Made by a program: the position numbers and the translations under genes. From the NCBI GenBank assembly GCA_963848155.1, contig CAWKCL010000007.1:431002-495001 (forward strand): 64,000 nucleotides of DNA, written 5' to 3'. Within the stretch, counting starts at the first letter, position 1. Every line of letters starts with the position of its first letter. The notes under the pieces were generated by a model. The model was given only the letters and a program-made list of their open reading frames with translations. It was not told where the DNA came from and did no database searches. Positions 3,944 through 60,534 of the stretch are shown in pieces. This DNA comes from an uncultured delta proteobacterium. GTDB taxonomy: Bacteria; Desulfobacterota; Zymogenia; Zymogenales; Zymogenaceae.

Positions 3944-5726
3944 TCATTCTTCACCCCGAACATTGCGCCGTTTTTCTTGTTTTCTTTTACTGATACTGCG
4001 GGCGATCACCTGCTCAACGACCGCGAGGCCGACGGCCAGGAAACGAAATCCGGGGCCTTTCTTTTGCCATTTGATTTCTTCCTTGTCGCAGACGATCCCA
4101 AGGTCCCTCGTATCTATCCCGACAACCCCCTTTCCCCCTTTACGTATTGATCGGCCACTCTCGGCTGTTTTACCCCGGATCGTGCCCCCGATCGCCGGGA
4201 CGTCGTTTCGCGCCTTTACCCGTCCGTACGTCGAGCGGTCTATATTACCTGCCCTAAACTTGAGCTCATTGAGCCGGACGCCTGCCTCATAGGTAGCCGA
4301 GACAAGCTCCTCTATGGGAAGCGAAGCGCTCTCATAGTTGAGCATATCTTTCCATGACGACGACGACAGCGCCGCAAGGTGTTCATCGAATGTCTTGTAC
4401 CGGATCGAGTAACCGTGTCTATCAGGATTCTCGAAGGCGATACTTCCGGGGTCGAGAAACGGCGCCAGCGGGGATATGAACGGCATGAGCCGTGCCCCGA
4501 ACTCCTTCATCAGGCGCCCGCCGTAATCGACGGTCTTGATGACCGATCGGTAGTCCTGCCGGGGGATTCCGGCCATGAAGAAGACGTCAAACTTCCGGGC
4601 GCCGTATTTCAACGCCCAGCCGATGTTTTTCTCGACAGCGGCCGCCGTGTAGGGTTTTCCTGATGCGCGGCGAAGCGTGTTATCGTGGGTCTCCGGAGAT
4701 ATCTCATAATTGACGTTGGGCAGCACGTGTGATACAGCCTTGAAAAATCCCTCGGGGGCGGTATCGAAGAGTTCTAATACGATAGGGTTTTTAATCCGGG
4801 CATCCGCGAGTCTCTTCAGGAAACGGTCGGCATAGTCGTCTCCGGCCTGCCTGATATCCCCGACAACGAAGATCGGCGCCCGGGTAAACCGGGTGAGCGT
4901 CGCGATATCTGACGCGATAAGCTCCGGGTCACGATAGGCAATCCGGCCGCGCTTGAGATATCGGTTTGCCGCCCATTTCGAGCCGCCGCAGATGACGCAG
5001 TTGTTTGTGCAGCCGCGGCAGGTAACGATCATGGTTATGGGATAACGCCACCAGTCATGGATTGGCGTCATGCCTATCGGATCGCGGTATTTTACGGCCT
5101 TCCGAAAGAGGTTTACGTAGTTATTCGAAAAGCTGTTCAAATGGTCGTCCACGACGAATGAGTCGTTGAAAACGACCCGGTCACCCCGTTTATAGACGAG
5201 GTTGGGGACATCCTCGAGCTGCCCGCTGCCGCCAATCGCCCTCATCAGGTAAACGAGGGCGCGCTCCGTAGAGTCCCCCCGAACGACGTAATCGATAAAA
5301 GGATACCTGATGATCTCCTCGGCAAAGTAGGTCGAGGAATAACCGCCGAGGATCACCGGGACATCCCGGATGGACCTCTTTGAGAAGCCGGGCAAGTTCC
5401 ATTGCCCCGTGGGCATGGGGCAGCCAGTGAAGCGATATCCCGAACGCCGACGCCTTGATCGTCTTGAGGTAGCGCCTCACGTCCATCCGCGGGTGGGTTA
5501 CCATAAGGTAAGCGAGATTGACGATACGCGCCCCTATCCCGTTGCGGGACAGTACCTCGGCGATGGAGGAAAATCCGATCGGGTACATCTCGAAGGCCGG
5601 AGTGGACGGGACTACGTCGCTGATCGGGCCGAAGAGTATTTCCCGCTGCCTGAAATCAAACACGCTGGGGGGGTGAATGAGGCAAAGGTCGGTCCTGGGT
5701 GACGGGAGCCTGAACATGCAGATCAA
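3944..5726 (-). CDS. B12-binding (class B) radical SAM enzyme, split into two frames by an apparent frameshift near 5190..5416
   Basis: ORF 5190..5726 encodes an N-terminal cobalamin-binding-type domain. ORF 3944..5416 continues (VILGGYSSTYFAEEIIRYPFIDYVVRGDSTE) into a radical SAM core with CTNNCVIC (CxxxCxxC). The two ORFs overlap in different frames. Confidence 0.7.
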
Positions 5727-5921
5727 ATCCTTCCTTGAATTTTATATTATCACACGCGCTTTCAGAAAAGGCAACCGAAATAGTCAGACAATTCCGTCGG
5801 CTTACGCAATCGCGGACTTACCGGCGGCGGTCCGGCGCGCTATTGTATTGATACGTATCGCGAATGGAGGATCAGGTACGTAGCGATTCTCCCGCCGGTT
5901 TCGAAATATCTGAAAAAAGGC

Positions 5922-5951
5922 TTGCGCATCGGTCAAACAAAACTATATAAT
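5922..5951 (+). promoter_or_regulatory. Sigma70-like promoter for cbiQ/cbiO (-35 TTGCGC, 18-nt spacer, -10 TATAAT)
   Basis: Read in sequence about 25 bp upstream of the cbiQ start. Confidence 0.4.
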
Positions 5952-5973
5952 GATTTGTTTCTTGGGATGGGAT

Positions 5974-6750
5974 ATGAAGCACCACTTTCTTGACGAAGAG
6001 AGCACCATCGAGAGCCCCATCCGGTCTCTCAATCCGAAGGCGAAACTTATCACTATCATCGCCGTCGTATTGATCGTCGTCTCAACACCCGCGGACGCCT
6101 TTGCCGTCTTTGCCCTCTTCCTCTCGCTCGCGCTTGCCCTGATCGTGATTTCGCGGGTGCCCGTCACGGTATTCCTGAGACGAGCCCTGATCGCCCTTCC
6201 CTTTATCGCGGCTGCATTAGCGGCTGTCCCCTTTGTCTCGGAGGCTCCGGGGACGACCTCCTATTCCCTTGGCATTGGGGGAGCCGCCGTTACCATGACC
6301 GGGTTTCTCCTGGTTTTCAATGTGCTGTGCAAATCGATCCTGTCCATCCTCTTCTTGACCCTGCTGATTTCCTCCACACCCTTTCGCGACCTCGTATCGG
6401 GCCTCCGGGAGCTCAGGGTGCCGACGTTTATAACCGATACCCTCTCGTTCATGTACCAGTACCTCTTTATCATCATGGACGAGATTCAGCGCGTCGCCTT
6501 TGCGCGGGACGCCCGGCTATACGGAAACCGCTGGATCTGGCAGGCGCCCGTTATCGGACATATGATCGGCAGCATCTTCGTTCGCAGCTATGAGCGCGGC
6601 GAGCGGATATTTTTGGCGATGAAGGCACGGGGATACGACAGCAGTATCGGCGTGAGGCCCACGGCCCCCGTTGCCGCACCGGATTATATCTTTACGATAA
6701 TCGTCATCTCGGGGGCCCTGGCCGCACGGTTATTCGGGGTCAGACTATGA
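5974..6750 (+). CDS. cbiQ: ECF transporter transmembrane T component (CbiQ/EcfT family)
   Basis: Multi-TM protein with CbiQ-like sequence (...RELRVPTFITDTLSFMYQY...ARDARLYG). ATGA overlap with the downstream ATPase gene. Start taken at MKHHF. Confidence 0.8.
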   Translation: MKHHFLDEESTIESPIRSLNPKAKLITIIAVVLIVVSTPADAFAVFALFLSLALALIVISRVPVTVFLRRALIALPFIAAALAAVPFVSEAPGTTSYSLGIGGAAVTMTGFLLVFNVLCKSILSILFLTLLISSTPFRDLVSGLRELRVPTFITDTLSFMYQYLFIIMDEIQRVAFARDARLYGNRWIWQAPVIGHMIGSIFVRSYERGERIFLAMKARGYDSSIGVRPTAPVAAPDYIFTIIVISGALAARLFGVRL

Positions 6751-9681: not shown

Positions 9682-10428
9682 ATGGAGAAAATGGCTACGA
9701 AGGATGATCAAGAAGTAAGACCAAAGGCTCGAGATACCATTCATTACGACATCATCGAGTGGTTTCGCGACAAAAAACGCGGTTCTGTCCTGGACGCTCC
9801 GGCAGGCTTCGGCCACCTCAGCCTGAGACTGACTGAAATGGGATTCAAGGTTGTATGCGGCGAGATCGAGCCGGAGATATTCCGGGTCAAGAACCTCACC
9901 TGCACCTTTACCGATCTCAACCGGCACATCGACGCCCCCGACGAATCGTTCGACTACGTATGCTGCGTCGACGGGCTGGAACATATGACCGATCCGTATC
10001 AGGCGGTAAAGGAGTTCTCGCGGGTCCTCAGGCGGGGTGGGTACGGCATCTTTTCAGTTCCGAACTATACGAACATCGAAAAGCGGATGAAATACCTCTT
10101 GAACGGGTACCTTACGAAACCCGTCGGCATGGAGCGCTATCGCAAGCAGGGGTCCCTGTTCAACTTCCACAATTCCCCCCTCACAATCACGATCCTCGAA
10201 TTCATGTTTTCCATAAACGGTCTCGAGATCGTCGAAATCAGAAAAAACGCGCCGAAGAAAAAGCAGTATCTTTTACTGCCGCTGGTCGCGGTTATTAAAT
10301 TCGCCAACCTCTTTGGCTCGAGGCGTCACCGGGAGAAACACCGGACCGACCTTACGCTCCATCCCAACGTCATACTCGGCGGCAACAATATCATCTGTAT
10401 AACGCGCAAAAGCACGGCGGGAAAGTAA
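9682..10428 (+). CDS. Class I SAM-dependent methyltransferase
   Basis: Motif I VLDAPAGFG, and CCVDGLEHMTDP...RVLRRGGYGIFSVPN. The ORF opens at 9622, but the likely start is the ATG at 9682 or 9691. Confidence 0.75.
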   Translation: MEKMATKDDQEVRPKARDTIHYDIIEWFRDKKRGSVLDAPAGFGHLSLRLTEMGFKVVCGEIEPEIFRVKNLTCTFTDLNRHIDAPDESFDYVCCVDGLEHMTDPYQAVKEFSRVLRRGGYGIFSVPNYTNIEKRMKYLLNGYLTKPVGMERYRKQGSLFNFHNSPLTITILEFMFSINGLEIVEIRKNAPKKKQYLLLPLVAVIKFANLFGSRRHREKHRTDLTLHPNVILGGNNIICITRKSTAGK

Positions 10429-10551
10429 CTCTCGCCGTGAAAGAACTATACGTCTGCACGTTTCTCCTCCTCTCACACGTGATAACTTCCTATCGCCGTT
10501 TTTCATCGCTCGCACCTATACTTGTGACGTTCCCGGGGTGGTGTGGAAAAC

Positions 10552-11364: not shown

Positions 11365-11445
11365 AGGCGCTTCGTAGTTCAGCCTGACATGACACCGGCG
11401 GCGATATAAGGCCGGTAATCCCCAAGCATCCGACTCTCTTAGAGT

Positions 11446-18418: not shown

Positions 18419-19186
18419 CTATTGGGTGATGAGGTTTTCTCGTATACGACCGATCTGATCCGAAGGGATACCGAGGATCTTCGTAGTATAGTAATCCATT
18501 CCACCGTATTCGTCAAAATACCGCACGATGATCTCCCCCCACTCCTGCTTGAGTAAGGCATGGTGCTTGTTGGAAAGCAGGTAATCAGAAACGACGTCGG
18601 GGCCCGACACGGCCAGCGTAAGCAGGATTAACTGCGCGGCAACATCGACCTCGTTGACACCGTCCTCGTCAAAGATGACCATCGGCAGGTTTCCTTTATC
18701 GGCAAGGAGCGCCAGCAGGCCGATGAGGCTCTCCCTGCTGTTGACGATCATCCGTTTGTAGTAGTCGTTCCTATCTTTGAGGGGGTCTGCCCGCATCGGA
18801 AGCCGCCTCACCTCAATTGCGCCGCCGGAAAGCTCCTCGATTCGGGAGGACTCGCCCCCCTCGACCCTCAGGTCAACGACGGTCACGATGCCCAGCCGTT
18901 TAAGGTCCTCGGAACCTTCTTTCGAGATTTTCGAAAGGTCACCTGAGCGGAAGAGGACGCCGCTCTTCACCATGCCATCACCCACCGAGTATCCCCCCAT
19001 ATCACGGAAGGTAGGGATCCCGTTTACCTCGACCCATCTTCCATCTTGCGCCGCGGCCGGACATACCGGGAACACAAAAAGGATTACGGCGGCCAACAGC
19101 GTCCTCCAAAGAACCAGGCTCCTAATCCCGCCGCTCCCGTATTCCAGCGGCGGTTTTATTGATGAGATAGTCCTGACCGTTACCAT
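18419..19186 (-). CDS. Secreted tyrosine-phosphatase-like (Y_phosphatase3-like) protein lacking the catalytic Cys/Arg (probable pseudo-phosphatase)
   Basis: Signal peptide LLAAVILFVFPVCPAAA. GVLFRSGDL and TVVDLR blocks resemble Y_phosphatase3. The expected HCxAGKDRTG P-loop reads IFDEDGVNEVD. Confidence 0.45.
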   Translation of the reverse strand: MVTVRTISSIKPPLEYGSGGIRSLVLWRTLLAAVILFVFPVCPAAAQDGRWVEVNGIPTFRDMGGYSVGDGMVKSGVLFRSGDLSKISKEGSEDLKRLGIVTVVDLRVEGGESSRIEELSGGAIEVRRLPMRADPLKDRNDYYKRMIVNSRESLIGLLALLADKGNLPMVIFDEDGVNEVDVAAQLILLTLAVSGPDVVSDYLLSNKHHALLKQEWGEIIVRYFDEYGGMDYYTTKILGIPSDQIGRIRENLITQ

Positions 19187-20417
19187 TGAAAACTCTCCTT
19201 GACAATTCGATTGAGCGTATCCTGTTTTTGTTCCATTTCCGCCAAGAGCCGAAACTGGGTCCGCGCCCGATCAAGGTTATGATCGGGCCTGTCGGTCCTG
19301 AAATAGACGTCTCCCGACAGGTAGTCCGTCAGGAATCTCACCCCCGTCTCCAACGTAATGACCAGGCATGCCGTTACCAGGAGCTCACGCTCCGATTGTG
19401 AGAGCGATAGCCCGCACCCGCCCGATCGCCCCACAAAACCGTCCACGATCGCCTCGAAGATCTCCAGATCGACGTGAACGGCGTCCAGATTCGTTTCGTC
19501 TTCCGGGCTGCGGCATACAGAGCTTCTCACCAGGTCGCCGAAGTCAAAGAGCGGCGATCCCGGCATAACCGTGTCCAGATCGATAACGCACAGTGCCCTT
19601 GGATTCTCGGCCCGATTATCGTTGAAGACGACGTTATTAATCTTCGTATCGTTGTGGGCTATCCTCAACGGGATTTCGCCCCTGTCGAGGGGTCCGGTGA
19701 TTGCCCCGCACAGGTCCTCCCGGACAAAACGCCGAATCGATCTCACCGGCCGCATTGCGTGTCCTCCCGCGTGGGTCACCGGTAACGGCCTCACGCAGCC
19801 GAAGAAAACGGGCGGGAGTATTATGGAAATCCTTGATGGTGACGTGGAAGCTATCGGCGTCCATTTCCTTGAGATGATCGGCTAAAGCGCCTGAAAGCGC
19901 CGGCCGCCTCCCGCGCTATCAATAATCCTGCCCTGCCATCCGGCACCCGGCTGTACGTGATTCCCTCGACGTAATGATAGCATCGCCAATACGCCCCATC
20001 ATCGTCCCGATAGTATGAATCCCCACTTCTGGTCGGTACGAGCATGAGCGCCGGAATATCTCTACTAGCCGCCGCTTTCCCGGGCCTTTGTACGATCGCC
20101 CCGGTGATCATCCCGATATTGTGCATGATAAGATCCGGACGGGGGAAAACTGCACCGTTGATACGCTGCAGGGTGTACCGTTTACTCCCTCCACCTGCCC
20201 TGATCGCGGCAATAAAGGTGTCGTTGATATGCCCGGCCTTACACGGGCTGACGTCGGTGACATCGCCGCCGAGACCGAACTGGTCCAGGATATTATGGAG
20301 CTGCTGGATCGTCTGGTTCATCCGGTAAGCTGCTGAGGATATATCCCTGCCGCTATCATCCGGGATATCTCGGCCGTTACCACCTGCCTGTCCTCGGGAT
20401 GGGTCATGCCGAACCAC
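19180..20417 (-). CDS. APH-family sugar/anomeric kinase (AmgK/NahK-like), split into two frames near 19794..19851
   Basis: N-terminal ORF has the GHINDTF nucleotide-binding region. C-terminal ORF has the catalytic HNDTKINNV and IDLD Brenner motifs. Different frames (apparent frameshift). Confidence 0.6.
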
Positions 20418-21210
20418 CGGTCGGCCGTATTGATCACCTTAACCCGGATTATCCCATTGGTGATAAGGGTCTTGACTACCTCCGGGATCAGGAACTCGGC
20501 CTTCGGATCGTCTTTGACGCCATCACGGAACGACCGGTAGAGGCCTTCCAAATGCTCAAAGAGGCTCGGAGAGAAGCCCCAGATGTTCATGGAGATGAAC
20601 GATTCGGGGCTCAGCTCAGCAAACTCGTTGTCTCGATCCATCCCGATACGTCCGTCCCTGATCTCGATACCGCTGGTCTCTGCGATATCGGTGAGCCAAC
20701 CGTCGGAAACCGCGCAGACGCCCCTGGTTACCGCCCCGTGCGGACTCACGGTGTTTTTGAGGCGATATCCGATCATGGCAAAGTTCTTATCGTTATAGTC
20801 GTCGGAGACCAGAAACGAATGGAGCGACTCAATAGCGTTCCTGCCGTAGTAGTCGTCGGCATTCACGACGCCGAAGGGAACATCGATATAGTCCCTCGTG
20901 GCCAGAACCGCGTGTCCCGTCCCCCAGGGTTTTTTCGTCCGTCGGGAAGGTCGGTCAGGTCCTGGTGTGCGTAGGCAGGGATGAGTCCGGCGGGCATATG
21001 GCGGCCTATTCGATCGACGAACTCCGACTCGAAGTCCCTCCTGATGACGAATACCACCCGCGAGAATCCCGCGCGGGCTGCGTCATACAGGGTATAGTGA
21101 ATCAGCAGCTCTCCGTTCGGCCCCACGGGGTCAAGCTGTTTGAGGCCGCCGTATCGGGTCCCCATTCCCGCCGCCATGATTACGATTGCCGTCTGAGCGT
21201 CTTTGGTCAT
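20318..21210 (-). CDS. Sugar-1-phosphate nucleotidyltransferase (MurU-like), split into two frames at a C5-G3-T6 homopolymer (20921..20935)
   Basis: N-terminus IVIMAAGMGTRYGGLKQL (G-x-G-T-R NTP-transferase motif). The C-terminal ORF continues the fold. The frame switch sits exactly on a cccccagggtttttt run. Confidence 0.6.
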
Positions 21211-21281: not shown

Positions 21282-22153
21282 TTATTTAAGGAACAATCCC
21301 ACGGCAGCCGCTACTATTATCACCGTTATGATTCGCATCAGAACTACCTGGTTTATCGTATGGACTTTAGCGGCCGCCCACCTGGCGGCAAACGACCCGG
21401 ACAGGGCCATGATGCCGCCGGCGACGTAATTCACGTATCCTATCGAATGCGGAATATGCTCCGAAGCCGAGAGACCCGCAATCGTCTGGACGATCACGCC
21501 CACGATGGTACAGACGGTCATGAGGCACGTAGAGTAGCAGATGGCCTCGATCATCGTAAAACGGACGAGGATTATCCCGAGGGGAATCGTTATTGCTCCG
21601 CCGCCTATCCCGAAGAAGGCCGCCACGAATCCCGAGAAAAACCCGATACTACCGCAAAAGAGCGTTCTCTTCGGTGGATACTGTCGCTCGTCGACCGGGC
21701 ACTCTATCGTTCCCTCCGGTATTCAAGACCTTCAGATCGCCGCTCTTCACCCGAGCGAGCGGTGCGCATAAACCGCAGCGCCGTCACGATCAGGAACCCG
21801 CCGAGGAGCTTTTTAAAGAGGGGGCTTGCCGTCATTGCGGACATCGTACCCCCCGTAACTGCGCCCAGGATTCCCGAAATCACCATAACAAGAAGGATAC
21901 GGTGATTAATAATGTCTTTCTTTAGATGAACCAGTGAGCTTGACGCGGCATTGAAGATGATCACGAAGAGGCTTGTCCCCACCGCCGTGTGAACGGAGGC
22001 GTTTTCGGGATAGCCGAGCAGCGCAAAGACATAGATGAGGATTGGTACGGTGATGACGCCTCCCCCTCCCCCCAGGAAACCGGTACTCATACCGGCGGCG
22101 ACGCCGACGACCAGGTAGAGGGCGAGCAGGCCCAGGAAAGCAATGTCAAGCAT
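21282..22153 (-). CDS. TauE/SafE family sulfite/anion exporter, two halves in different frames
   Basis: Both TauE internal repeats are present (GGGGGVITVPILIYVF and FGIGGGAITIPLGIIL). The ORFs 21704..22234 and 21282..21626 are in different frames. Likely start at MLDIAF (22153). Confidence 0.65.
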
Positions 22154-22322: not shown

Positions 22323-22854
22323 CTAAAAGGCCTTTGACTCCGACACAAACTCCAGTATCTCGTCCTTCATCTCGGAGAAAAACTTTTCCTTGATCCGTTC
22401 CTTGGAAGGGAAGTACTTCGTCGTTTTCAGGACGCCCTTCTTAGCGGTTATCTCGTCGAGCGTTCGGTTGTCGACAAAGGACGCGGTGTAGGACATGGAA
22501 GCTGCGTCCCTGACCAGCCCAAAGGTGCCGCGGGCCACCAGGCGCTCGTTTCTGCGTACCAGCACGAGATCATCGACCGTAACCGTAAGGATCATGTCGG
22601 CCCGGTCCGGGGAAGTTGCAATACTAAAGCCCATACGCGTGCAGGCGAGATTGAAGGTCCTCGACAACGCTGATCTTTTCGTCGTTGGTGATCAACAGGA
22701 TCGGATCATAGACCATGTCGACAAAAACGCTCCTGTATTTCTCCGGCGAAACCGGCGGCGGCGCATAGGCTTGCGGGCCGGATTTGCAGCTCGGCAGGCT
22801 GATAGCAATTAAAAGAGCCGATATAACCGATATGAGAATGCTGATCTTCTTCAT
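22323..22854 (-). CDS. Putative lipoprotein (two overlapping ORFs, possibly one gene with a frameshift)
   Basis: MKKISILISVISALLIAISLPSC lipobox at the N-terminus. A second ORF 22323..22667 continues in another frame. Confidence 0.4.
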
Positions 22855-23065
22855 TACCCCCCCGTAACGGATGATTCCCTGCGTAAAATGTCTCAAATAA
22901 CGGTGTGATTACCCGTAGCGGTAAAACCGCTCTCCTCGCCCTACTGGATCGGTCTGGTGTAGAGAGTCAGATAGCTGAACGCGTAGGTTCCGTCAGGAAG
23001 CCGATCCACGCAAAAGTCGACCCTGTTTACCTGGATCTCATAGTAATTGAGATTCCAGGGCTCGG

Positions 23066-23995
23066 TCACGATACAATACCCGACGATATCCCCGGCCTCG
23101 TCAATCCTGCGTGGATACCTCTCTTGACTTTCCATGATGTATCCCATGAACCGGTCAGCCACACCTGACGGTCGAGCTCCTGCCCGCCGAGACGTATCAC
23201 CCAGTCGGTGTGGGCTACCCAGACCTCAAAAATCCCGGGAACGGCAAGCTTCGATACGAGGGATAAATCCCTCTTCTCAAGTGCGGCCTTGATCTTTTTC
23301 ATCGGCTCGCCCGGAGCACTGAAGAGAGGGGCCGAAGAATAAGAGTCTATAAATACCATGTACGGATCGAGAAGCTCTGTGGCGGTAGTGAAATCGTCTT
23401 CCAGTTCCACGCCCGGATATGTCTTCATGAAGTAGGCGTACGCCGCCCGCGCCTCATCGAATCGGTGGAGGTATACCAGCGCCTCGATCCGATCTGAAAA
23501 CGTGCCGAGCAGGGCGCTCGAGAGCCGCGCACTCCCGGTGATTGAAGCCCGGGAAAAATTTCGTTCGATCTGATCTATAATGAGCCGGCACTGGCCCTCT
23601 GTTTCCATTAGCTTTCCAGACTCGCGTAATTGATCAAGCCTAGTTATTTCCTCGGAGAGCGAGGGCACGTCCCGGTAGGATGTTTCCGCGCCCGGGTCTT
23701 TGGTATTAAGCGCCGTATCGAAGACCCATCCCTCGACTCCCCGATATCTGGCCAAACACCAGTGCCCGGAGCTGCCCCCCATCGTATCGGTTTCTTTTAA
23801 ACAGAGGATAATGAGTACCGCCTCTCCCGCGCCCGGAGAGACGACCGTTTCCGAATTGACGTCGGGCCGTTCCCTGAGGTCCGTCTCGTCTCCCGCGAGA
23901 AAGGCCTTATGGTTTTCGGCGCCAAGAAGTGAAAGAGGAGAAAATAGACATCCTATCCAGGTAAATAGGAGGAATGTGAGCACACGATACTGCAT
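23066..23995 (-). CDS. Secreted hypothetical protein
   Basis: 309 aa. Signal peptide MQYRVLTFLLFTWIGCLFSPLSLLGAE. No recognisable domain. Confidence 0.5.
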   Translation of the reverse strand: MQYRVLTFLLFTWIGCLFSPLSLLGAENHKAFLAGDETDLRERPDVNSETVVSPGAGEAVLIILCLKETDTMGGSSGHWCLARYRGVEGWVFDTALNTKDPGAETSYRDVPSLSEEITRLDQLRESGKLMETEGQCRLIIDQIERNFSRASITGSARLSSALLGTFSDRIEALVYLHRFDEARAAYAYFMKTYPGVELEDDFTTATELLDPYMVFIDSYSSAPLFSAPGEPMKKIKAALEKRDLSLVSKLAVPGIFEVWVAHTDWVIRLGGQELDRQVWLTGSWDTSWKVKRGIHAGLTRPGISSGIVS

Positions 23996-23997
23996 GA

Positions 23998-25257
23998 TTA
24001 TCCCTTTCCTGATTCCCCCCTGCTCTCCTCCAAGACCTCCATAATCTTCTTTTCCGGATAGAATAGATAGACGATGATACCCAGGATGCAGACAAAGGCG
24101 GTAAGGAATGCCGAGAGCCGTATACCTCCGGGATCGGCAACGTCCTTTCCAAAGGCGGCAAACAGGTAGGCAAGCACCAGTGTCGCCACACCGAGGTTGA
24201 CCTTCTGAACAAGGCCCTGCGCGCCGAAGTACATGGCGTCCCGATTTATACCGGTCTTGACGGCGTCATATTCGGCCAGATCCGCAATCATCGCGTTGGG
24301 GACGGCAAGGAGCGCCGAGACCGGTATCCCCATTACCCCGAAAATGATGAAGGCCTGATTAACGGGAGATAGGATCAGGGCGTCGCTGCCTAAAAAGTAG
24401 ATGAGTACGGCGCATACGGCAAAAACAGCAAGGCTTAAGATCATGATCATCTTCTTGCCGATAACCCGGCTGGCGATATTTATTATCGGGAAAAATATGA
24501 GGGCCACGCCGAATACAAAGGCGAAGACAACGCTCGCGAACGTTTCGGGTTTCCCGAGGAGGACCGTGACGTAGTAGGTCGCCGATTCCGATACAACATT
24601 GAGGCCGAACCAGAGGCAGATCGTGCCGATGAGATACGGGATAAAGGGGCGATTCTTAAACGTAAGCTTGAGCGAGTCCCACATTCCGATTTGGGCAGGG
24701 CCGGTCGCGCTGTAGCGTTTCTCGTCAATGGGGATGATGCAAAGATAGCAGAAAACGAGGCCCAGGGCACAAAGGATAACGATGGTATACTGTAGCGCCC
24801 GGGTCTTATCGATTCCCGCGCCTTCCAGCGCGCCCCAGAGGGCGTATCCCCCGATCATGACGATAACCACGCCGACCAGCGAGAACGCCGCCTGCATCGT
24901 GGTAATGTTTATCCGCTCCTTGTTGGTATGTGATAGCTCCGGTATCAGCGCGAGCCACGGCGTAACATAGAAGGTAAAGAAGAAGAGGAGACACCCCAGC
25001 ATCAGCGCCATATAGACGGCGTTTCCCATCGTCGCGTGATCAGAAGGCGGGAAAAAGAGGAGCGCCGTCGCAATCATGAGGGGGAGCCCGCCATATACAA
25101 GGAAGAACTTCCTCCTGCCGAGCTTCGACGTGCTGCTGTCGCTCCAGCTTGCCACCAGCGGGTTTGCGATTGCATCCACCACCCTGCCGAATATCGTGGC
25201 CAGACCCGCGACCGTCAGTACCCAGAGAAACGTCGTGTTACTGATGAGCTCGGTCAT
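23998..25257 (-). CDS. MFS transporter (GPH/glycoside-cation symporter-like)
   Basis: 419 aa, 12 predicted TM helices. ASWSDSSTSKLGRRK resembles the GPH/MFS motif. Confidence 0.8.
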   Translation of the reverse strand: MTELISNTTFLWVLTVAGLATIFGRVVDAIANPLVASWSDSSTSKLGRRKFFLVYGGLPLMIATALLFFPPSDHATMGNAVYMALMLGCLLFFFTFYVTPWLALIPELSHTNKERINITTMQAAFSLVGVVIVMIGGYALWGALEGAGIDKTRALQYTIVILCALGLVFCYLCIIPIDEKRYSATGPAQIGMWDSLKLTFKNRPFIPYLIGTICLWFGLNVVSESATYYVTVLLGKPETFASVVFAFVFGVALIFFPIINIASRVIGKKMIMILSLAVFAVCAVLIYFLGSDALILSPVNQAFIIFGVMGIPVSALLAVPNAMIADLAEYDAVKTGINRDAMYFGAQGLVQKVNLGVATLVLAYLFAAFGKDVADPGGIRLSAFLTAFVCILGIIVYLFYPEKKIMEVLEESRGESGKG

Positions 25258-25529
25258 TCCCGATTCTTTCGGGGGGAAGGTAGAAATAGAGCATAAAAGT
25301 GACCCATATCCGATCGGCGATGGTAAATCCGATATAGCCGCTCGAATAAAGGATTTGCCCCCAGAGTGGGAAGCGTTCGACTTTTTTCTTCATATATAAT
25401 GCCACTTAATACGTTTGTATTAGGCTAAACCATCATGCCTGATTTGTCAATGTTTTTCATTCTCTTGACGTAACCACGACCGGTATGCTATTGTTCTTGG
25501 ACAATTTACCGTCTATCGTTGAGGTTCTC

Positions 25530-30791: not shown

Positions 30792-30998
30792 CCCCTCGAA
30801 AGCATGGACGCCGTCGTCACGTTCCGCCCGCCGGAAACTGAGGGTTGTATCCGCCCCTATTCTCACGTCTCCGTGCCGCCGGTACGGCTTCCCGCGAATG
30901 AAAACGGCCCCTCATGCCGGGGCCGTCGAATATCAATCGGCGATTCTCCCGATTCCTACCCCGTCAGTGCCTCCGACGACGATATCCGTATAGAGCAG

Positions 30999-32174
30999 TC
31001 ACTCAACCGGGTAGGTCGAGCATGTATGGACGAATCCGTACTGCCTGTCGACCCGGCGGCGCGCGTCGGTCTCCGGTTCGATAAAGACCTCACCAGAGAT
31101 CAGCTCGGCCCGGCAGATCCCGCACTGGCCCGACCGGCAGCGGCTGTCCGCGGCGATCCCGGCGCGCTCCAGCGCCACGAGTATCGGCTCCTCCGCCTGC
31201 GCCGTGATCGTCTTCTGGTCCCAGTCACGCAGGACGGTCAGTTGATACTCCCTTCCCTGCGCCTTCTTCGGGAAATCGGGGTGCGCGGCGATGAGCCGGT
31301 TCGGCCCGGAGACCTCCCATCGGAGCCTCCGGCGGGGAATCTTGAGCCTTTCGGCCTCTTTGGTGAAGAAGCTGTAGAGGGCCTGCGGGCCGCAGACAAA
31401 GAATGACGTATCGGCAATGTCGCCGATTTCCCGTGCGATCAGTTTCGCGTCGATGAACCCCGTGGCGCATTTCTCCGTGCCGTCCGGCTCGCTCACCACG
31501 TAGCAGACCCTCAGGCGGTCGGCGGCAGTTTTGGACAGCGACACGAGCTCCTGTTCGAAGAGGGCGTCCGCCATCGTCCTGACGCCGTAAAGAATCGTAA
31601 GCGTCGCGTCCACGCCGCCGTGGGCAACCTCGCGGGCCATCGAGAGAAACGGCGTGATCCCCGAGCCCCCCGCAACCGCCACGATATTACGCGCGTCTCT
31701 CAGCGGCTCGTGGTAAAACTCCCCGTGGGGACCGGAGGCCGATAGACGAGTCCCTTCCCTGAAGGTCGAGAATACGAGGGGAGACACAAACCCGTCCGAG
31801 AGCCGCTTGACGGTGATCTCATAAAACCCGCCTCCCGCCCCGTTCGCTTCGAAGGGGGCCGACGAGATCGAATAGGGGCGGCTGACACGCACCCCGTCGA
31901 AGGTCCCCTTCAGCGACAGGTACTGCCCCGCGCGAAACGGCGGCAGTTTTTCGGTCGCGCCGTCAGGCTTCAGCCGAAACGTCCGGGCGTCCGGACCGTG
32001 CTCGACGATTCCCGAGACAACGAGGTCCAGGACCGGGGGGTGCAGGATCAAAACGGTTCGCCGTACCGGATCGGTGACATCGATAAAGGGGCGGGCCGCG
32101 GCCTTCCTGGCGGCGCGCTGGGCCAGCGCCCCCGCCGTCCTGCCAACTCCCGCGATAAACCGAAAGAGATTCAT
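30999..32174 (-). CDS. PDR/VanB-type oxidoreductase: FNR-like FAD/NAD(P)-binding reductase with a C-terminal plant-type [2Fe-2S] ferredoxin domain
   Basis: RPYSIS flavin-binding motif, GGSGITP NAD-binding motif, and C-terminal CRSGQCGIC...C cluster. The start ATG overlaps the stop of the upstream gene (ATGA). The ORF-track extension to 32372 is probably not translated. Confidence 0.75.
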   Translation of the reverse strand: MNLFRFIAGVGRTAGALAQRAARKAAARPFIDVTDPVRRTVLILHPPVLDLVVSGIVEHGPDARTFRLKPDGATEKLPPFRAGQYLSLKGTFDGVRVSRPYSISSAPFEANGAGGGFYEITVKRLSDGFVSPLVFSTFREGTRLSASGPHGEFYHEPLRDARNIVAVAGGSGITPFLSMAREVAHGGVDATLTILYGVRTMADALFEQELVSLSKTAADRLRVCYVVSEPDGTEKCATGFIDAKLIAREIGDIADTSFFVCGPQALYSFFTKEAERLKIPRRRLRWEVSGPNRLIAAHPDFPKKAQGREYQLTVLRDWDQKTITAQAEEPILVALERAGIAADSRCRSGQCGICRAELISGEVFIEPETDARRRVDRQYGFVHTCSTYPVE

Positions 32175-33837: not shown

Positions 33838-34652
33838 TTATCGGAATATCCTTCTGATCACCCGATTCGTCTTGTGTTTGATGACGTTGCCGTCTCTCTT
33901 GATATCATTGACGGCCGATTCGCCCTTGTCCTGGAGGTATTTCAGGCGGCGCTCAATGATCTTTTTCGTGCGTTTTCCCTTGAAATCAAGGTTACGCAGC
34001 AGCTTGATCCGGTTAGCGTCAACCCACCGCCCGGGCTTTTCGGGGATCTTTCCCTGACGAGCCGGACGCCCTCGTTGCCCCTGACCAGGATGGGGGAAAG
34101 GCCCTTCCTGACGACGTCCTTGGGCTTGAGCTCCACGGCTCCGTCCGAACACAAAACGTCGGTCTCCCCGGCCGCCTTATCATGAGAGACGACGAAGTCC
34201 GTCCCCCGCACCCCCACCGTCGTGTTTTCCGTCTCAATGATAAATCTCGATTCGGCGTTCAGGAGCGGCGCCACGACGGCGCGCACCTTTCCGTAGAGGA
34301 GGTTCAGGACGTTTGACGATTTCTTGGTTACCTCGACGTAGCCCGCCTCTCTCACGACGACCCGGCTTTCCGGCCCGACCCGCACGACGCTCTCGTCCGG
34401 CAGCAGCAGTTCCACCGAGCCGTCCTTTCCCGTATCTATCCGGTCTCCCGTGTTAACGACCCGATCTTCCGAGAGGACAACTGACGTATTCCGCCCGGCC
34501 GGCATGAGCGTGGCCTCGCCCTCAACATAGGCCACCGTAAGGGGCGGGTACGCTTCCTCGCCGCCGAGGCAGAACCCGGTAAGTCCGATCATCAGTATCA
34601 GAGACCAGACAAACAGCGCGGCGGCAACTGCGACAATTCGCTGTCGATTCAT
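33838..34652 (-). CDS. FecR-domain membrane protein (apparent frameshift in the C-terminal region, 33942..34152)
   Basis: TM helix, then a FecR-type beta domain (VGVRGTDFVV). The ORF 33838..34152 continues in another frame. No ECF sigma factor is adjacent. Confidence 0.5.
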
Positions 34653-38650: not shown

Positions 38651-41112
38651 ATGCGGCACCCCCTCCCCCTTATCACTCTTGCCCTCATGGCAGGAATCGG
38701 GCTGGGGGTGTTCGTTTTTGTGCCTGTCGGAATTGCCCTCCTTTTGGCGGCAATATTTTTGATCCTCGTTCTAACGCTCACAAAAAGCCGTTTTGCGCTC
38801 TATCTCTGTCTTGCCCTTTTCTTCTTTCTTGGAACCGCCCTCATTTCAACCTCGCTTCGACCAGAAAAGAAAGGTAACTCCATCACGGACTATTGTTCCG
38901 GGAAAGAGCATGCGATCTGTGGGACGGTTATGGAGCCGCCCCGAACGGAGACGGACGCAACCCGGATCGTCCTTTCCGACCTTATGGTCAGGACTCGCGG
39001 CGGATGGCGGCCCGCTGAGGGTAGCCTCCGGCTGACGGTTGGTGAGCGGATATCCAACGTATCGTATGGTGATACCCTGTTCTTTGTCGGCACGATAAGG
39101 AAACCGCGAAATTTCAACAATCCGGGCGGGTTTGATTACGAGTTTTCGCTTATGCGCGCGGGCATCTCGGCGACCGCCTTTGTCGACAGCCAAAACCGCC
39201 TTCTCGTCAGGGAGTCGAATCCCGTCCTCCCCGACTGGGCCTGATAGAACGTTGGAGGGACTCCGTTCGGAGTTTCTACGACTCCCGGTTCCCCACGCCG
39301 GAGGGGGCCGTCATCAAGGCGCTCATCCTCGGAGAGCGGGGGGACATTCCGGAGGAGATCCTCTCCGCCTATTACCGTACGGGGGTCGGCCATGTGCTGG
39401 CGATATCGGGCTCGAACGTAGGGATCGTCTATATCTTCACCTACCTCTTTTTGTACGCCGTGCTCGTGCGGTGGGGGAGATTCCCCCTCAGGCACTCGGT
39501 CAGGAAATGGGCCTCGGTCGTCTCTTTCGGACCCGTGATCGTTTATACGCTCCTGGCCGGCCTTGAGATCACCGTGGTTCGGGCGACCCTGATGATCTCG
39601 GTCTTTGTTTTGGCGATCCTCATTGAAAAGGAGCAGCAGGTCTTTAATACCCTGGTCCTGGCGGCTTTCGTTATCCTCTTGTTTTTACCCGCCTCACTTT
39701 TTGACCCGTCCTTTCAGCTCTCGTTCGCGGCGGTGCTCTCGATCATACTCCTGTATCCCACTCTCATCGAGCCCCTCAAGCAGCGCTTCTTCCCGATCGA
39801 CGGGGTTAGGCCGCCGCTTGCCCATCGGGTTGCTTTTCGCCTCCTCCAGTTTACCCTGGTCTCCTTCGCGGCGATCGTGGGCCTGCTTCCCCTCACGGCC
39901 TACTATTTCCACAGGGTAACCCCGTTTGCTCTCCCGCTGAATTTCGTAGTTGTGCCGCTTCTGGGTCCCGTGGCAACCTCACTCGGTCTCCTTTCCGTTC
40001 CATTTATGACGGCCGCGCCGCAGGTATCCTCTTTCTTGAGTCTCATCGCCGCGTGGGCGGTGTCTCTCTCCAACAGCGCGGTCGCCTGGACCGACGCACT
40101 CCTTCCGAAGGGCGTGGTCGTCTTCGGTCCTACGTTGTTCGAAATCGTCCTCTACTATGGATTAATCCTATCGGTGCTTCTGTTATTCAGGAAAAGGCGG
40201 TGGGCGATAGTCCCGGCGGTCCTGCTTATCCTTATTGCTATTGTGGACGTCACCGTAACGGCGTGGCACCGGTACGATTCGAATCGTCTCGAGGCGACAT
40301 TCCTTTCCGTCGGTAATGGGGATTCGTGCGTTATGAAACTTCCGGGCGGCGATATCATGGTGGTCGACGGAGGCGGACGGTTGGGAAGCGCCTTTGACAT
40401 GGGTGAATACGTTGTCGCGCCTTTTCTGCTGAAGGAGCGGATACTCCGGATCGACTACCTGGTGTTGTCCCATCCGGAACAGGACCACGCGGCAGGGCTC
40501 ACGTACCTGATGGACAATTTTACCGTCGGCGAGCTCTGGATTACCGAGGATGCCGCCCGTTCGAGAGAGACGTCGCCGCTCATCGCGTCGGCGCGCTCGC
40601 TCGGGATCCCGGTGATTACGATCGATTCATCGTCGCCGCCCCGCACCATCGGGCCCACAACCATCCGGTTTTTCAACCCCGCCCCGCCGTCACCCGGCCA
40701 GCCGGGTGACGTCAATAATCGCTCTCTGGTCTTTCGCCTTTCATACGGGCTGTTTTCGCTGCTCATGACCGGTGATATTGAAGAGGAAGGTCTTTCCCGG
40801 ATCGCGGCCGACGGAACCGATCTTGCGTCCCTCGTCCTCAAGGTACCCCACCACGGATCGTCACCCTCGTCTCCCCTCTTCTTTCTCGAATCGGTGAGCC
40901 CCCGTGCGGCGGTCGTATCGTGCGGGTTTGATAATCCCTATGGTTTCCCGGGAGAAAAGTCGCTGGAACGTCTTCGGGAGGTCGGCGCCGATGTATTTCG
41001 GACCGACCTCGACGGTGCGATATCGGTCGCCACCGACGGCCGATATCTGAGGATAGAGACGATGACGGGCGCCCGATTATACGAGGATATCACTGATGAG
41101 GGCGACCGATAA
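38651..41112 (+). CDS. comEC: DNA internalisation competence protein ComEC/Rec2 (DUF4131, competence domain and metallo-beta-lactamase domain), frame switch near 39200..39245
   Basis: ORF 38651..39244 is the DUF4131 N-terminus. The downstream frame, open from at least 39181 upstream of the annotated 39394 start, encodes ...ALILGERGDIPEEILSAYYRTGVGHVLAISGSNVG and the MBL motif HPEQDHAAG. Confidence 0.75.
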
Positions 41113-41166: not shown

Positions 41167-42700
41167 TCACCCGTTACGGAGCGCCTTACCTGCCTTACCG
41201 ATATGGTCTCTGCCCAGGAAATAGTTTATCCACGACGACGTGCGCCACAATGCCCAATCGCACGGGGGGACGGTGTCCGGCTTAAAGACCCGGTCGGTCC
41301 CCGTGCGTGCAAGCCGCCGGTACGCCCGCACCCAGACGCAGAGCCGGACGCCCGGATAGACCTCGCACCAGCCGTCCGTTGATCCCCCGCAGGGACCGTT
41401 GCGCTCTTCCTTCGGACATTGCGACATGGGGCAAAGGTAAGCGACGTCAAAGAGGGCGCAATCCCCGCAATTACGGCATTCGAACAACAGGACCTTGATA
41501 CCGTTCTCGATATAGGCAAATAGGCCGGAAAGGATCCGCGAGGAATCGACGATACGCGCCGCTATGCGCATGAGTCCGTAGACCGGGCTCTTCGGTTCAA
41601 AGAAAACCGCGTGAACCAGCCGGGAGAAGAGATAGGCCGGGTGCCTCAAAAGGCCGTCTACTCCTCCGGGACGGTGTTGTCGAGTTCAATCGGCCCGTCT
41701 TTTGTTTCTCGAAGAGATAGTACCCTCCCTCCTGGGGATAGTCGAACTCCGGCAGGTACCGCCGCCAATCGGCCGAGAGCGCTTCCCCCCGTTCAACGAT
41801 CTCGATGACCGTGTCGCAGTCGATACCATGCCCCCCGATATGCGCGCCCGCACATCCCATCCCCTTGGCAACGGCGTAGTGCCGTGCCGCGCGCGTAATC
41901 CGCGCCTCTCTGCCCTTGTCGGGGGCCGTCCGTTCAGCCTCGATTTCGGCCAGCAGCTTATTGGTCACGACGCAGCCGGGGATAGTCCCCGCGTTCATAG
42001 TCCGCGCCGCCGGGAACGTCAGGACGAATATGTTGGCAAGCACGGGGATATCCACCCGCGCGTTTGACAGGAAGGTCAAAACCTCGTGAAGCTTACGGGC
42101 GTCGTAACCGACCTGGGTTACGATAAAGCGGGCGCCGGCCGCTATCTTCTTCATGAGCTTCTCGTATTGCCCGACCAGCTCCGCCTCCGTCTTTTTGAAC
42201 GGCGAGACGGCCGCCCCGCAAAAGAAGTCCGTGGCGGCCAGCTTCAGCGGCTTGCCCATGAAGTCGTATTCAAGCCCCCGGTTCATTCGGCCAACCAGCG
42301 ACAGCAGGTGGATCGGATCGATATCGAATACCGGCTTGGCCGTACCGAAGCCGCCATCGGTCGGATAATCACCCGAAAGGACAAGGAGGTCTTTGACCCC
42401 GTTTCTGTAAAGCCCGCACAGAAGGCTTTCGAGCTCGTTTCTGTTCTTATCCCGGCAGGCGACGTGAACCAGCGGATCGATACCGAGCTTTTGTATCTCC
42501 ACCGCAATGAACTCCGCGGCAAGCGCCGGGCTGCCCCCCGGGTTGTCGGTAAGTCCGATGCCGTGGATCTTCTTTGAGCGCGCCGCCTTTTCGGCGTTCT
42601 TTATCAGGTCATCCTGCTGCCTTTCTGCGAATCCCCGTCCGGAGACGAGCTCCCAGTTTACGCAAAAGGTTTTTGGGTCACACAGGGCCTCTCTGAACAT
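41167..42700 (-). CDS. metF: Methylenetetrahydrofolate reductase fused to a C-terminal MTHFR_C zinc-ribbon domain, split into two frames near 41597..41649
   Basis: ORF 41597..42700 is a MetF TIM-barrel. ORF 41167..41649, in another frame, carries the Cys-rich MTHFR_C pattern CRNCGDC...CP...C...NGPCGG...CEV. Confidence 0.7.
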
Positions 42701-44940: not shown

Positions 44941-45211
44941 TTGGCTAATCATCGGTCGGCCATAAAACGGATGATCCAGGGCGAAAAGCGCCGGGTAAGA
45001 AATCGGCACGTCAAGAGCACCGTTAAGACCACTATAAAGAGCTACCTTAAAACCGTTGAAGAGAAGAACCCCGAGACTCGCCAAAGAGAGCCTTAAGCAT
45101 ACAATCACGACCATCAACAAGGCGGCTTCCAAGGGCGTCATCCACAAGCGAAACGCCTCCCGGAAAATTTCCCGGCTTACCCGGAAGTATAACGCCCTGT
45201 CCGCATCATAG
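44941..45211 (+). CDS. rpsT: 30S ribosomal protein S20, TTG start, interrupted by a 1-nt frame error in a CCCC run (45069..45072)
   Basis: Frame 1: (M)ANHRSAIKRMIQGEKRRVRNRHVKSTVKTTIKSYLKTVEEKNPE... reaches an in-frame TAA at 45094. The +1 frame continues with the canonical S20 C-terminus ...TINKAASKGVIHKRNASRKISRLTRKYNALSAS*. Not called as one gene in the ORF track. Confidence 0.85.
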
Positions 45212-46248
45212 TGGTGATATCCAGGGCCATTTTGTCCATCACCACGCCGCTCTTCCCCGATCGGGATTTTAACAGCTTATCCGTTTTATAGAACTCCCGA
45301 AATGCCCCGCGAAACACCTCGTGGGGTATGCGGCGCGCCTGCGCCGTGTATTCGGCCAGTCTGAACGCGGGAATCTTAAGCTCTCGCGATGCCCTCGCGT
45401 CTTCCACGTGGTGATCCATCAGTATCTTCAGAGACCAGAGCCGCATGAAGTGCCACCGGATGGTCGACAAAATCTGCGTGGGTTCCGCCCCCTCGCCAAT
45501 CACCTCCCTTAGCATCTCCACCGAGCCCGCCGGATCGCCGCGTGACAGCGCGTCCGTCAATTCGAAGACGCTGCGCACCCGGAGGTACGGGAGGATATCC
45601 TCGACGACCGAAAGCGTTGCCTGTTTTTCATCGCCCAGGAACAGTACGATCTTTTCGACCTCCATTGCAACGGCCGAGAGGTCCTGCCCGATACAATCCA
45701 CGATGGCGTCCAGCGCCTCATGGTCGATTTCCTTACCTTCCTTCTCCATACGCCTTACCACCCACTCCCGGATATCGGTCTCCCTGGCCTTGGCAAACAC
45801 GGTCACGGCGGCGAGTTTTGACCAGCTCCGAGAGTCGGTCGACCGGCGGCGGGGCCACCCCCGAGGCCCCTTTCCCCCTGCCGATACCGCGGGCCGTTAC
45901 TATCATGAGGGTCTTGGGCGATGGGTCCTGTGCGTAGGCGGCAATCGTCTGGATTTCCTTTTCCTTCAGTCTCTCCGCCCCTCGGATAGTAACGACCTTT
46001 TTCGCCCCTCCCATGGGGATTGTCATGGCGGAGTTCATGATATCGGTTACGGCGTCATCCCCGGCGTAGAAAACCTCGCACAGCAGGTCACCGAAGATTC
46101 CGCCCCCCGTAAGCGCGGCCGACACCAGACGATCCTCGTATTCGCGGACAAGAAAGTCGTTTTCTCCGTAAAAAAAATAGACGGGATAAAACTTCCCGTC
46201 TTTAATGTCCCGATCGAGGTCCCTGGGAGAGGCATAATACCGAGTCAT
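45177..46248 (-). CDS. holA: DNA polymerase III delta subunit, N- and C-terminal halves in different frames (switch about 45733..45806)
   Basis: The N-terminal ORF has the delta-subunit N-domain. The C-terminal ORF has the helical domains. It lies in the conserved leuS-lptE-holA gene order. Confidence 0.75.
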
Positions 46249-53152: not shown

Positions 53153-53155
53153 GGT

Positions 53156-58209: not shown

Positions 58210-58380
58210 GCGCCTTCGTTTCCCTCTTGATCGTTGGTTACGGGTCTTTTGATATCAGGATAAGCCGTGTTCGCCCCGGTTCGTGTGACGAAAATCACAG
58301 CGCAACGGGGACTTTTTTTGTATTGTTATACTATATGAATCATGTACGATAGCGTAATCAACGGCATACGAGGAACAGCC

Positions 58381-58644
58381 ATGAAAAAGACGATCATGAT
58401 TCTTGTGTTTCTTGCCCTTACCACGACGTTGCTGGGATGCATCGGGTACGGCGTCATCACCCACGGCGGATATGCGGTCTACCTGACCGACGGCTCCGAA
58501 TACCATAACGTCTTGTGGTACAAGAGCAGGACTGAAGGCGTGGCCCTGTCGGAGCATCCCACCGGGACGGTCATGTTCCTGACCCAGGAGTACGGCCTCG
58601 TTGAGGTGCCATGGGCCAACGTGGTGAAAATCCAGACCGAATAA
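58381..58644 (+). CDS. Small lipoprotein, function unknown
   Basis: MKKTIMILVFLALTTTLLGC lipobox. Confidence 0.5.
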   Translation: MKKTIMILVFLALTTTLLGCIGYGVITHGGYAVYLTDGSEYHNVLWYKSRTEGVALSEHPTGTVMFLTQEYGLVEVPWANVVKIQTE

Positions 58645-58729
58645 AGGGCTCCGATACCGGACATATGCCATGCCGCCCTGCCTCTACCCGGCAAACCGGG
58701 AGATGACTGCCGGCACCCGGCATAAGGGG

Positions 58730-60534
58730 CTACTGCGCCGCCTGAGTGATGACGCCTGAGACGAACCTGCCGTCGAGCGCGTCTCTATCGGGCACGTGCG
58801 TCATTTCGCCGACAAAATCCGCAAGGGTATCGCTGACGAATTTTACGGACGCGCCTCTGATTCTCTCGTCGCCGCATTCAGGTATTCGCCCGACAAATGC
58901 CTCAACGTGGCGGATGATCGTACCGATAATTCCCGGGTTTTCGCGCACCATATCATAGAAACGACCCAGCTCTTCATTGGAAAGCGGGACGACCTCCCAT
59001 TCACCCCCGAGGCACCCCCGCACACACGCCGTCATAAAGATATGTTCAAGTCCCCAGCCATGGGTCTTCGCGTTGCCTATCAGCCACGGCCTGATATCTT
59101 CGGGGATGTTCACGATCTCACGGATGAGATGGACCCGGGCCGAGAGCTCCGTCATGAAGCCCGCGGACGCCGCCAGGTCGTCTATCGACCTGAAATTTCT
59201 ATAGCTATGCGCGCCGCCGGAGATCGCCTCATAGAAAAGGGGTTTTCCGGCCAAAAGGCCCTCGACAACGCTGCGGGCGAAATCCCCCCAGAATACCGGC
59301 TCGATGATCGACGAGAGTTCCCTCACGAGAACCTCGTTTCGTTTTCTTTCGGCCAGCGCGAGCGTATAACCCAGCCGGAACAGCTCCACCAGATAGACAT
59401 CCCGGATCGTCCGCTTTGCCTCATCGTAGTGCGCTGCCCCCGTAAGGTACTCCAAACCGAGATTGATATAATCCCTGGTCATTTGCGCAGATGATACCAA
59501 CTCCTCCACGTCAGAAAGGTCCATCCCCGAGGCCGCCACTACCTTATGTACCAGGTACGAAAGCTCCCACAATAGATGAGCGGCGCGGTCGTCGTCGGCC
59601 ACCTCTCCCATGAGCTCCTCGAAGAAACCGCCGGTCTTTCTGGGTATGAGCCAGTAATGGGGGGGAGTTCGTCGGTCTGACGGTCGTCGAGGTAAATGAC
59701 TTTGGACGACATTGAGCGGATAGTTTCGACGATCTTGGCCGGGTCTTCGAACATGAAGAGATCCCGCGCCTCGCTAAGTTCGGGAAAGCCGATCATCGAC
59801 ATACGTGACGATCTGAGCCGGTAGGCGTCTTCTTCCATAGGAGAGGGCATCTCTCCGATCACCCCTTCCATGATAACGCGGTAATAGTCGGGCTCGTGTT
59901 CAAAAAAACCCATGAGGAGATTCGAGACGAGGTCGAAGTCCAGTTCCTCATCTATCGGCCTGAAATAGTAGAGGTTATCGAAGCTGAACCATCCTCCGTC
60001 GGTAAATTCGAGCGGGTCTTGATCGAGGTTCCTGGGCACTGCCTCGATGATACCCTTAAAAAAGAGTATCACAAGCGGCTCATCGAGCATAAAGAGACTC
60101 TTGGTAAGGACCCGCTCCCCGCCTTCCGCAAGAAGCTGAAGCCATTCCATGAACTTGCCGAAATCTATGCGATCCCGCTTCCAGATATCCATATCCAGGA
60201 GTTGGACGATCTTCTCCGGAGAGGTCATTTCAAGGATAATGGCCGCATCCGTTCCCCACGATTCCTTCACCGTTAGATATATTTCCTGCGGGGAGAGCTT
60301 TTTCAGGAGCTTGAGCGGATCGGGAGACGAGATGATGAGGTGGGCCTTTGTCCTGACAGGCGATCTCTGGATAAGGCGGAGCCGATCCTCAAACGAGAGG
60401 GCCGTGAGATCGCGCTCCGTCAGGCGCTCGCCCGCGAGCGTTCGATCAAGGAGGTTGTTAAGGCCGTGGGCCGGTATCAGATCGTTCATTTTTTCAATTA
60501 TATCAGAGGATTGCGCAAAAGGAAAGTTAATCAT
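58730..60534 (-). CDS. Large conserved hypothetical protein (about 600 aa), in two overlapping frames (switch about 59539..59611)
   Basis: ORFs 59539..60534 and 58730..59611 overlap in different frames and read as one continuous soluble protein. No recognised domain. Confidence 0.45.

Follow-up and report, generated by a model that had tools for sequence, protein, structure and literature searches.

Recurrent single-base frame breaks in a 64-kb segment of a Zymogenaceae metagenome contig are very probably consensus errors of the assembly

Are genes that appear as two overlapping reading frames in a metagenome contig decaying genes, or intact genes that were wrongly assembled? This question is raised by a stretch of 64,000 nt (hereafter, the window) from an uncultured delta proteobacterium of the family Zymogenaceae (GenBank assembly GCA_963848155.1, contig CAWKCL010000007.1, positions 431,002 to 495,001), in which 14 of approximately 56 genes, including holA, rpsT and metF, are interrupted by changes of reading frame. 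The window has a base composition of 57% GC, with a third-position GC content (GC3) of approximately 0.75 in real genes. A preliminary description of the stretch had attributed ten such splits to assembly indels and had cautioned against calling them pseudogenes. As judged from comparisons between assembled sequences, that explanation very probably holds for all 18 of the breaks now mapped: intact orthologues exist, a contig of the same population (L090) lacks both extra bases of the AmgK gene, nonsense codons are absent, the out-of-frame parts carry the mark of purifying selection and 18 edits repair every gene.

Number and placement of the frame breaks

The genes called in related genomes were compared to the window by tblastn. 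Of 41 genes compared, 28 were intact and 13 switched frame, and a transporter of the MFS family was found separately as the fourteenth broken gene. The breaks were placed by nucleotide alignment; the ends of hidden Markov model (HMM) matches are too imprecise for this. A total of 18 single-base events was obtained, consisting of 15 extra bases and three missing ones (Table 1), i.e. approximately one per 3.6 kb. Two events each were observed in the genes for AmgK, TauE, ComEC and a hypothetical protein of 350 aa (hyp350), and the remaining genes have one. Eighteen one-base edits produced 14 uninterrupted open reading frames (ORFs), the lengths of which are those of the intact relatives. The two ends of the window that are not covered by a relative (1–3.1 kb and 60.5–64 kb) contain complete Pfam domains and exhibit no sign of breaks.

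All ten of the genes previously named are truly split, with the paired ORFs matching adjoining segments of a single family model or of an intact homologue, but that list was incomplete: a hypothetical protein of 176 aa (hyp176), hyp350, the MFS transporter and an FNR-like reductase have to be added. The density of one break per approximately 6 kb was accordingly too low. The intervals proposed for the breaks enclosed the true event for the B12-binding radical SAM protein (B12-rSAM), MurU, ComEC and the DUF6178 protein, but missed it by 10–70 nt for AmgK, TauE, MetF and HolA. The rpsT break had been assigned to a C4 run; this run is identical in an intact relative, and the extra base lies at 45076–45078.

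Exact-sequence look-ups placed the window proteins, both intact and truncated, on one contig of 1,758,208 bp in NCBI and ENA. The fragments present in the public record for this contig include two of the DUF6178 protein (331 and 264 aa) and single ones of MetF (367 aa), HolA (171 aa), B12-rSAM (490 aa), hyp350 (309 aa), the FNR-like reductase (391 aa), the FecR-domain protein (236 aa) and TauE (149 aa), indicating that the frame breaks are a property of the deposited assembly. That the breaks stand in the deposited sequence is also what would be seen if the strain truly carried the frameshifts, for example through relaxed selection or a hypermutator state. Their distribution is hard to reconcile with such genuine decay. 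Nine events fall within 5.6 kb (19.7–25.3 kb; P≈5e-4) and three pairs of events are 13–27 nt apart (P≈3e-4 for three pairs at distances of ≤30 nt). Patches and close pairs of this kind are not expected of independent mutations but would be expected of a locally poor consensus.

Intact relatives, same-population contigs and selection

The window belongs to an uncultured, Thermodesulfobacteriota-like lineage. The best match to LeuS among the GTDB species representatives had 65% identity, with no closer relative in that set, and the genomes recovered in this way were informative for rpsT and holA only. A scan of metagenome contigs with MetF yielded a single relative at 48%. Near relatives were located by protein searches using the repaired DUF6178 protein, the repaired ComEC and an intact VWA protein. 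These comprised a 36-kb JGI contig (L081/L083; ~93% nucleotide identity; spanning window positions 28.9–60.5 kb); the metagenome-assembled genome (MAG) GCA_016933535.1 (L084/L087; 76–78% identity) with its Logan counterparts (L085/L088; SRR13394437); the 1.08-Mb ENA contig ERZ25039527 contig_41017 (L086; 93% identity; 3.1–24.9 kb); the 100-kb ENA contig ERZ25039461 contig_69404 (L091; 95.5% identity; 12.9–34.3 kb); and two Logan contigs of run ERR10755943 (L089 and L090), each 99.7% identical to the window.

Comparison with orthologous genes of related genomes, which the preliminary description had put forward as a check, found each of the 14 genes intact in at least one relative, with 13 of them intact in assemblies of the short-read type (JGI, MAG and Logan). 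Support for the break in the MFS gene comes from L091 and from the gene length in relatives (464 aa). In clusters at 90% identity, the complete members located on contigs of <100 kb either had the canonical length or differed only by choice of start codon (HolA, 356 aa in five members; TauE, mostly 289 aa; FNR-like reductase, 405 aa in six members; MetF, 510 aa; hyp350, 350 aa; B12-rSAM, 590 aa). The only sources of frame-broken or truncated products in these clusters were the three very long contigs.

For AmgK, the same population is also represented by an independent assembly; same-strain sequence was not recovered for the remaining 16 events. The alignment of L090 to the window (99.70% identity over 2,963 nt) contained seven substitutions and exactly two gaps, which correspond to the two extra AmgK bases at 19882 and 19725, and the AmgK ORF of L090 is open across both sites. 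L089 aligned to the window with no gaps over 2,229 nt. At both of the sites that can be tested in this way, the frameshifts are thus absent from a near-identical population, contrary to what gene decay would lead one to expect.

The long sister contigs are damaged in a similar manner but in other genes. Breaks were observed in L086 for a CoA-transferase, an HDAC, a Y-phosphatase, AmgK and the C-terminus of B12-rSAM, and more were observed in L091 (UvrB, CysS, ECH, VWA, CoA-transferase, amine oxidase, FNR-like reductase and FecR). Within the stretches that they cover, both contigs differ from the window at every one of its event sites. The CoA-transferase gene that is split in L086 is whole in the Logan contig bearing an identical VWA protein. 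The breaks in L086 and L091 suggest a problem of consensus quality across the data set.

The types of lesion and the pattern of selection were also examined. In-frame stops were absent from the aligned frames of the 41 genes compared, as against 18 frameshifts, and no truncating deletions were present among these genes. The ratio of nonsynonymous to synonymous substitution rates (dN/dS), as compared to the closest relative, was 0.123 for intact genes, 0.138 for the parts of broken genes upstream of the breaks and 0.151 for the downstream parts. The downstream value is near the intact level, indicating that the out-of-frame parts have been under purifying selection for nearly all of the divergence time, although this test by itself is compatible with a very recent origin of the breaks. 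Decaying genomes, such as those of Mycobacterium leprae and of recently host-restricted symbionts, accumulate nonsense mutations, deletions and expanded insertion sequence (IS) elements, have relaxed dN/dS and share many of their lesions between sister strains. The window resembles them in that many genes are interrupted by frameshifts, but these other lesion types, the relaxed dN/dS and the shared lesions were not seen in it; a quarter of its genes, holA, rpsT and metF among them, would have been broken without nonsense codons, large deletions or IS elements. Genuine decay is consequently considered very unlikely, even though a near-identical independent assembly was available as a check at only two of the 18 sites.

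Error profile and probable origin

The relation of the breaks to homopolymers was assessed by random placement of events with interval widths preserved. Runs of at least four bases were touched by six of the 18 events (2.5 expected; P=0.03) and runs of at least six bases by three (0.25 expected; P=0.002), whilst the other 12 touched no run of four or more. The statement in the preliminary description that several switches coincide with homopolymers is therefore correct for a genuine minority of events but not for the majority. Clear changes of run length were limited to the DUF6178 gene (G8 to G7) and the FecR gene (C4 to C3), with further possible changes in short runs for holA (T3 to T4), the AmgK event at 19725 and B12-rSAM; the MurU and MFS events directly adjoin runs of six bases (T6 and G6, respectively). 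If all of the breaks had arisen from miscalled homopolymer lengths, as in pyrosequencing, Ion Torrent or early Nanopore chemistry, these run-length differences and the enrichment at runs of six or more would be accounted for. In at least ten events, however, the inserted base differs from both of its neighbours (e.g. GAG[A]CTC in rpsT, ACG[C]GTA in hyp176 and GAA[T]ACC in TauE), and at least ten events do not amount to a length change in a run of four or more. Taken together with the 12 events that touch no such run and the unaltered C4 run of rpsT, this makes a purely homopolymer-based explanation highly improbable. The predominance of insertions (15 versus three deletions) makes pyrosequencing, which had been proposed as a possible source, an unlikely one. 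No shared motif, such as a methylation site, was seen around the insertions on inspection by eye.

A further explanation is that some sites are not errors but sites of programmed ribosomal frameshifting, transcriptional slippage or phase variation. One protein encoded in two overlapping frames is the arrangement found in the +1 frameshift of prfB, the -1 frameshift of dnaX and homopolymer contingency loci. One candidate of this type is the DUF6178 site: its G7/G8 tract, which differs in length between the window and L081, is of sufficient length for slipped-strand variation. In all of the relatives, however, each gene occupies a single frame, and there is no conserved shift site. Most of the sites lack a slippery sequence, and stimulatory or shared motifs were not seen. 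The broken genes have housekeeping roles unrelated to one another and are not known to be recoded. Recoding or switching as an explanation of the breaks is considered extremely unlikely.

The favoured explanation, i.e. consensus errors of the assembly, would operate as follows. A long metagenome contig (1.76 Mb) would retain residual single-base indels, with at least 18 in 64 kb; each would shift the frame, with the result that gene calling yields two or three ORF fragments for each of the genes (14 in the window) that are intact in the organism. Two classes of event can be seen: a minority class lies at or beside long homopolymers (a G8 read as G7 in the DUF6178 gene, a loss by T6 in MurU and a gain by G6 in the MFS gene), and a majority class consists of isolated insertions of one base within ordinary sequence, grouped in patches. 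The related ENA records are named in the form ERZ...:contig_N, which is a Flye-style name, and this naming, taken with the size of the window contig, points to a long-read metagenome assembly of the Flye type. The errors probably arose during long-read consensus generation or polishing, with Nanopore reads, Flye and Medaka as the likely combination. Large sets of Nanopore-only MAGs from soil and sediment have been generated with Flye and one round of Medaka (PMC12313526), and in Nanopore-only bins with less than ~40-fold coverage, indels persist that break up gene calls (PMC9262707). Modest coverage or patches of strain heterogeneity are the presumed setting, and the patchy grouping of events is suggestive of low depth or mixed strains in places, as opposed to an error process that acts uniformly.

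Strain mixing could leave a specific trace. At the AmgK position 19882, an A is present in the same-strain contig L090 and a G in the relatives L086 and L091, whilst the window has AG. Similar columns were observed for the other AmgK event (19725), S20 (45076) and the hyp350 event at 23109. Some of the insertions might hence be the two alleles of a strain single-nucleotide polymorphism (SNP), stacked side by side in a mixed-strain consensus; several other sites do not fit this hypothesis. We give a small probability to a mixed outcome in which a few breaks are real variants (e.g. G7/G8 slippage switching the DUF6178 gene off, or a hypervariable patch at 19.7–25.3 kb containing AmgK, MurU and TauE) or the non-homopolymer insertions reflect a poorly described consensus failure that writes both SNP alleles.

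Several points weigh against attributing the breaks to consensus errors. Same-strain confirmation covers two of the 18 events and comes from a contig, L090, whose seven substitutions mean that its genotype is not identical. An error profile dominated by insertions outside homopolymers differs from the textbook Nanopore profile of homopolymer deletions. The platform was deduced from contig size and naming, and the case was built on assembled sequences and not on the raw reads of this assembly.

In other respects the window conforms to the frameshift artefacts documented for long-read assemblies generated with Nanopore or PacBio continuous long reads (CLR) (PMC9262707; bioRxiv 10.1101/2021.08.23.457338; PMC12007338). 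In both, single-base consensus indels split intact genes at approximately one per few kb in low-coverage bins, essential genes are struck indiscriminately and accurate-read assemblies of the same population, or of related ones, lack the lesions. Such artefacts are the target of the IDEEL test, proovframe, Kastor and short-read polishing. The breaks are thus an ordinary data-quality artefact of a class that is already well known, with no biological novelty, and their relevance is to annotation hygiene rather than biology. Approximately one quarter of the window genes, including holA, rpsT, metF, comEC and the AmgK-MurU recycling pair, would be wrongly annotated, either as pseudogenes or as pairs of short proteins, and both completeness estimates and metabolic inferences for the MAG would be biased. 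Two thirds of the errors would escape a check confined to homopolymers. What is required is either polishing against accurate reads or a comparison to relatives that takes the reading frame into account, and the 18 positions can serve directly for repair.

Individual genes and their neighbours

Table 1. Broken genes of the window, with the single-base events mapped in each and the length of the product after repair
Gene or product	Position in window	Strand	Single-base events	Repaired length (aa)
B12-binding radical SAM protein (B12-rSAM; TIGR04190)	3944..5717	-	one extra base, 5365-5370	590
AmgK-like kinase (APH family)	19180..20321	-	extra bases, 19882 and 19725	379
MurU-like nucleotidyltransferase	20318..21210	-	base lost at 20929/20930, between GGG and TTTTTT	297
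TauE/SafE exporter	21282..22153	-	extra bases, 21721 and 21748	289
Hypothetical protein (hyp176)	22323..22854	-	one extra base, 22637	176
Hypothetical protein (hyp350)	22941..23995	-	extra bases, 23109 and 23122; final 55 aa in another frame	350
MFS_2 transporter	23998..25393	-	extra base, 25270, beside G6 run	464
FNR-like reductase (FAD_binding_6, NAD_binding_1, Fer2)	30956..32174	-	extra base, 31003; cuts last 14 aa	405
FecR-domain protein	33838..34652	-	base lost, 34052-34054 (window C3, L083 C4)	271
ComEC/Rec2	38651..41112	+	net two extra bases, 39235 and one within 39208-39220	819
MTHFR-DUF5981 fusion (MetF-MetV-like)	41167..42700	-	extra base, ~41656	510
rpsT (ribosomal protein S20)	44941..45211	+	extra base, 45076-45078 (GAG[A]CTCG)	89
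holA (DNA polymerase III delta)	45177..46248	-	extra base, 45816-45821 (window T4, relative T3)	356
DUF6178 protein	58730..60534	-	base lost in G run, 59659-59665 (window G7, L081 G8)	601

Successive parts of a single family model were matched in two frames for B12-rSAM (TIGR04190 positions 1–110, then 109–498), TauE (Pfam positions 2–114, then 122–236), S20 (TIGR00029 positions 2–45, then 47–84), HolA (TIGR01128 positions 1–102, then 117–312) and the DUF6178 protein (profile positions 2–232, then 244–560). The Pfam ends placed the DUF6178 junction upstream of the G7 run; this placement was rejected, as the nucleotide alignment puts the event in the run itself. For B12-rSAM, a gap was observed at 5370 in the alignment to L086, and the intact JGI protein (P0322) has 590 aa. 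The TauE events appear as gaps in the alignments to L086, L087 and L091, and its 90% cluster contains 11 intact members, of which nine have 289 aa. Alignment to the window of homologues from other genomes required a frame switch for 25 S20 and 14 HolA proteins.

The splits in AmgK, MurU and FecR were established by tblastn with intact relatives. AmgK is spread over three frames, with the L087 protein passing through frames -3, -1 and -2, and its two extra bases are also missing from L086, L087 and L091. The column of the base lost from MurU contains, on the coding strand, a G in L086 and L087 and an A in L091, where it generates an A7 run. The genes for the AmgK-like kinase, the MurU-like nucleotidyltransferase and the TauE exporter are adjacent (19180–22153, minus strand), in an order kept in L086, L087 and L091. 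AmgK and MurU presumably constitute a salvage route from N-acetylmuramic acid (MurNAc) and N-acetylglucosamine (GlcNAc) to UDP-MurNAc.

The main frame of the MFS gene lacks a start codon, and its first 41 codons (MKKKVERF...) lie in another frame. Repair moved the start of the Pfam match from profile position 33 to position 2. Base 25270 is missing from L091, and two relatives have proteins of 464 aa. A PDB search with the repaired protein gave no match.

The two ORFs of ComEC carry DUF4131 and then the Competence and metallo-beta-lactamase (MBL; Lactamase_B) domains; homologues are encoded as single ORFs, mostly of ~780–890 aa among the closer matches. In MetF, the MTHFR domain lies in the first ORF and DUF5981 in the second. 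The combination of MTHFR with DUF5981 ('MTHFR C-terminal', zinc-ribbon-like) in one protein of ~510 aa is also found in relatives (L083, 12491–14023; L084, 12520–14043).

Six other pairs that had been suspected of being split genes were dropped, as they are separate genes: Memo-AMMECR1/AmrS, Fer4/UvrB, amine oxidase/FNR-like, MurJ/Ogt, SuhB/cytochrome c and metallophosphoesterase/methyltransferase. Additionally, +1 and -1 gaps were observed in the alignment to L081/L083 at 49787 and 49798 (plus strand), separated by 11 nt within a divergent part of the N-terminal region of a spermidine-synthase-like gene. These gaps compensate each other and are probably an alignment artefact, the gene being recovered as a single high-scoring segment pair (HSP) of 770 aa.

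A strain-variable patch is located at 10410–11469, where a minus-strand methyltransferase ORF of low coding potential (10552–11364) is present in the window and a Na+/Ca2+ exchanger gene occupies the corresponding place in L086 (7305–8717), L087 and L088. A pair of the AmmeMemoRadiSam type, located at 51929–54655 (minus strand), consists of a 499-aa Memo-AMMECR1 fusion, a single stop and then, in the same frame, a 407-aa radical SAM protein, an arrangement kept in L081. Lastly, an 877-aa protein with no match in Pfam or NCBIfam is encoded at 55576–58209 (minus strand) and adjoins the DUF6178 gene in both the window and the JGI relative.

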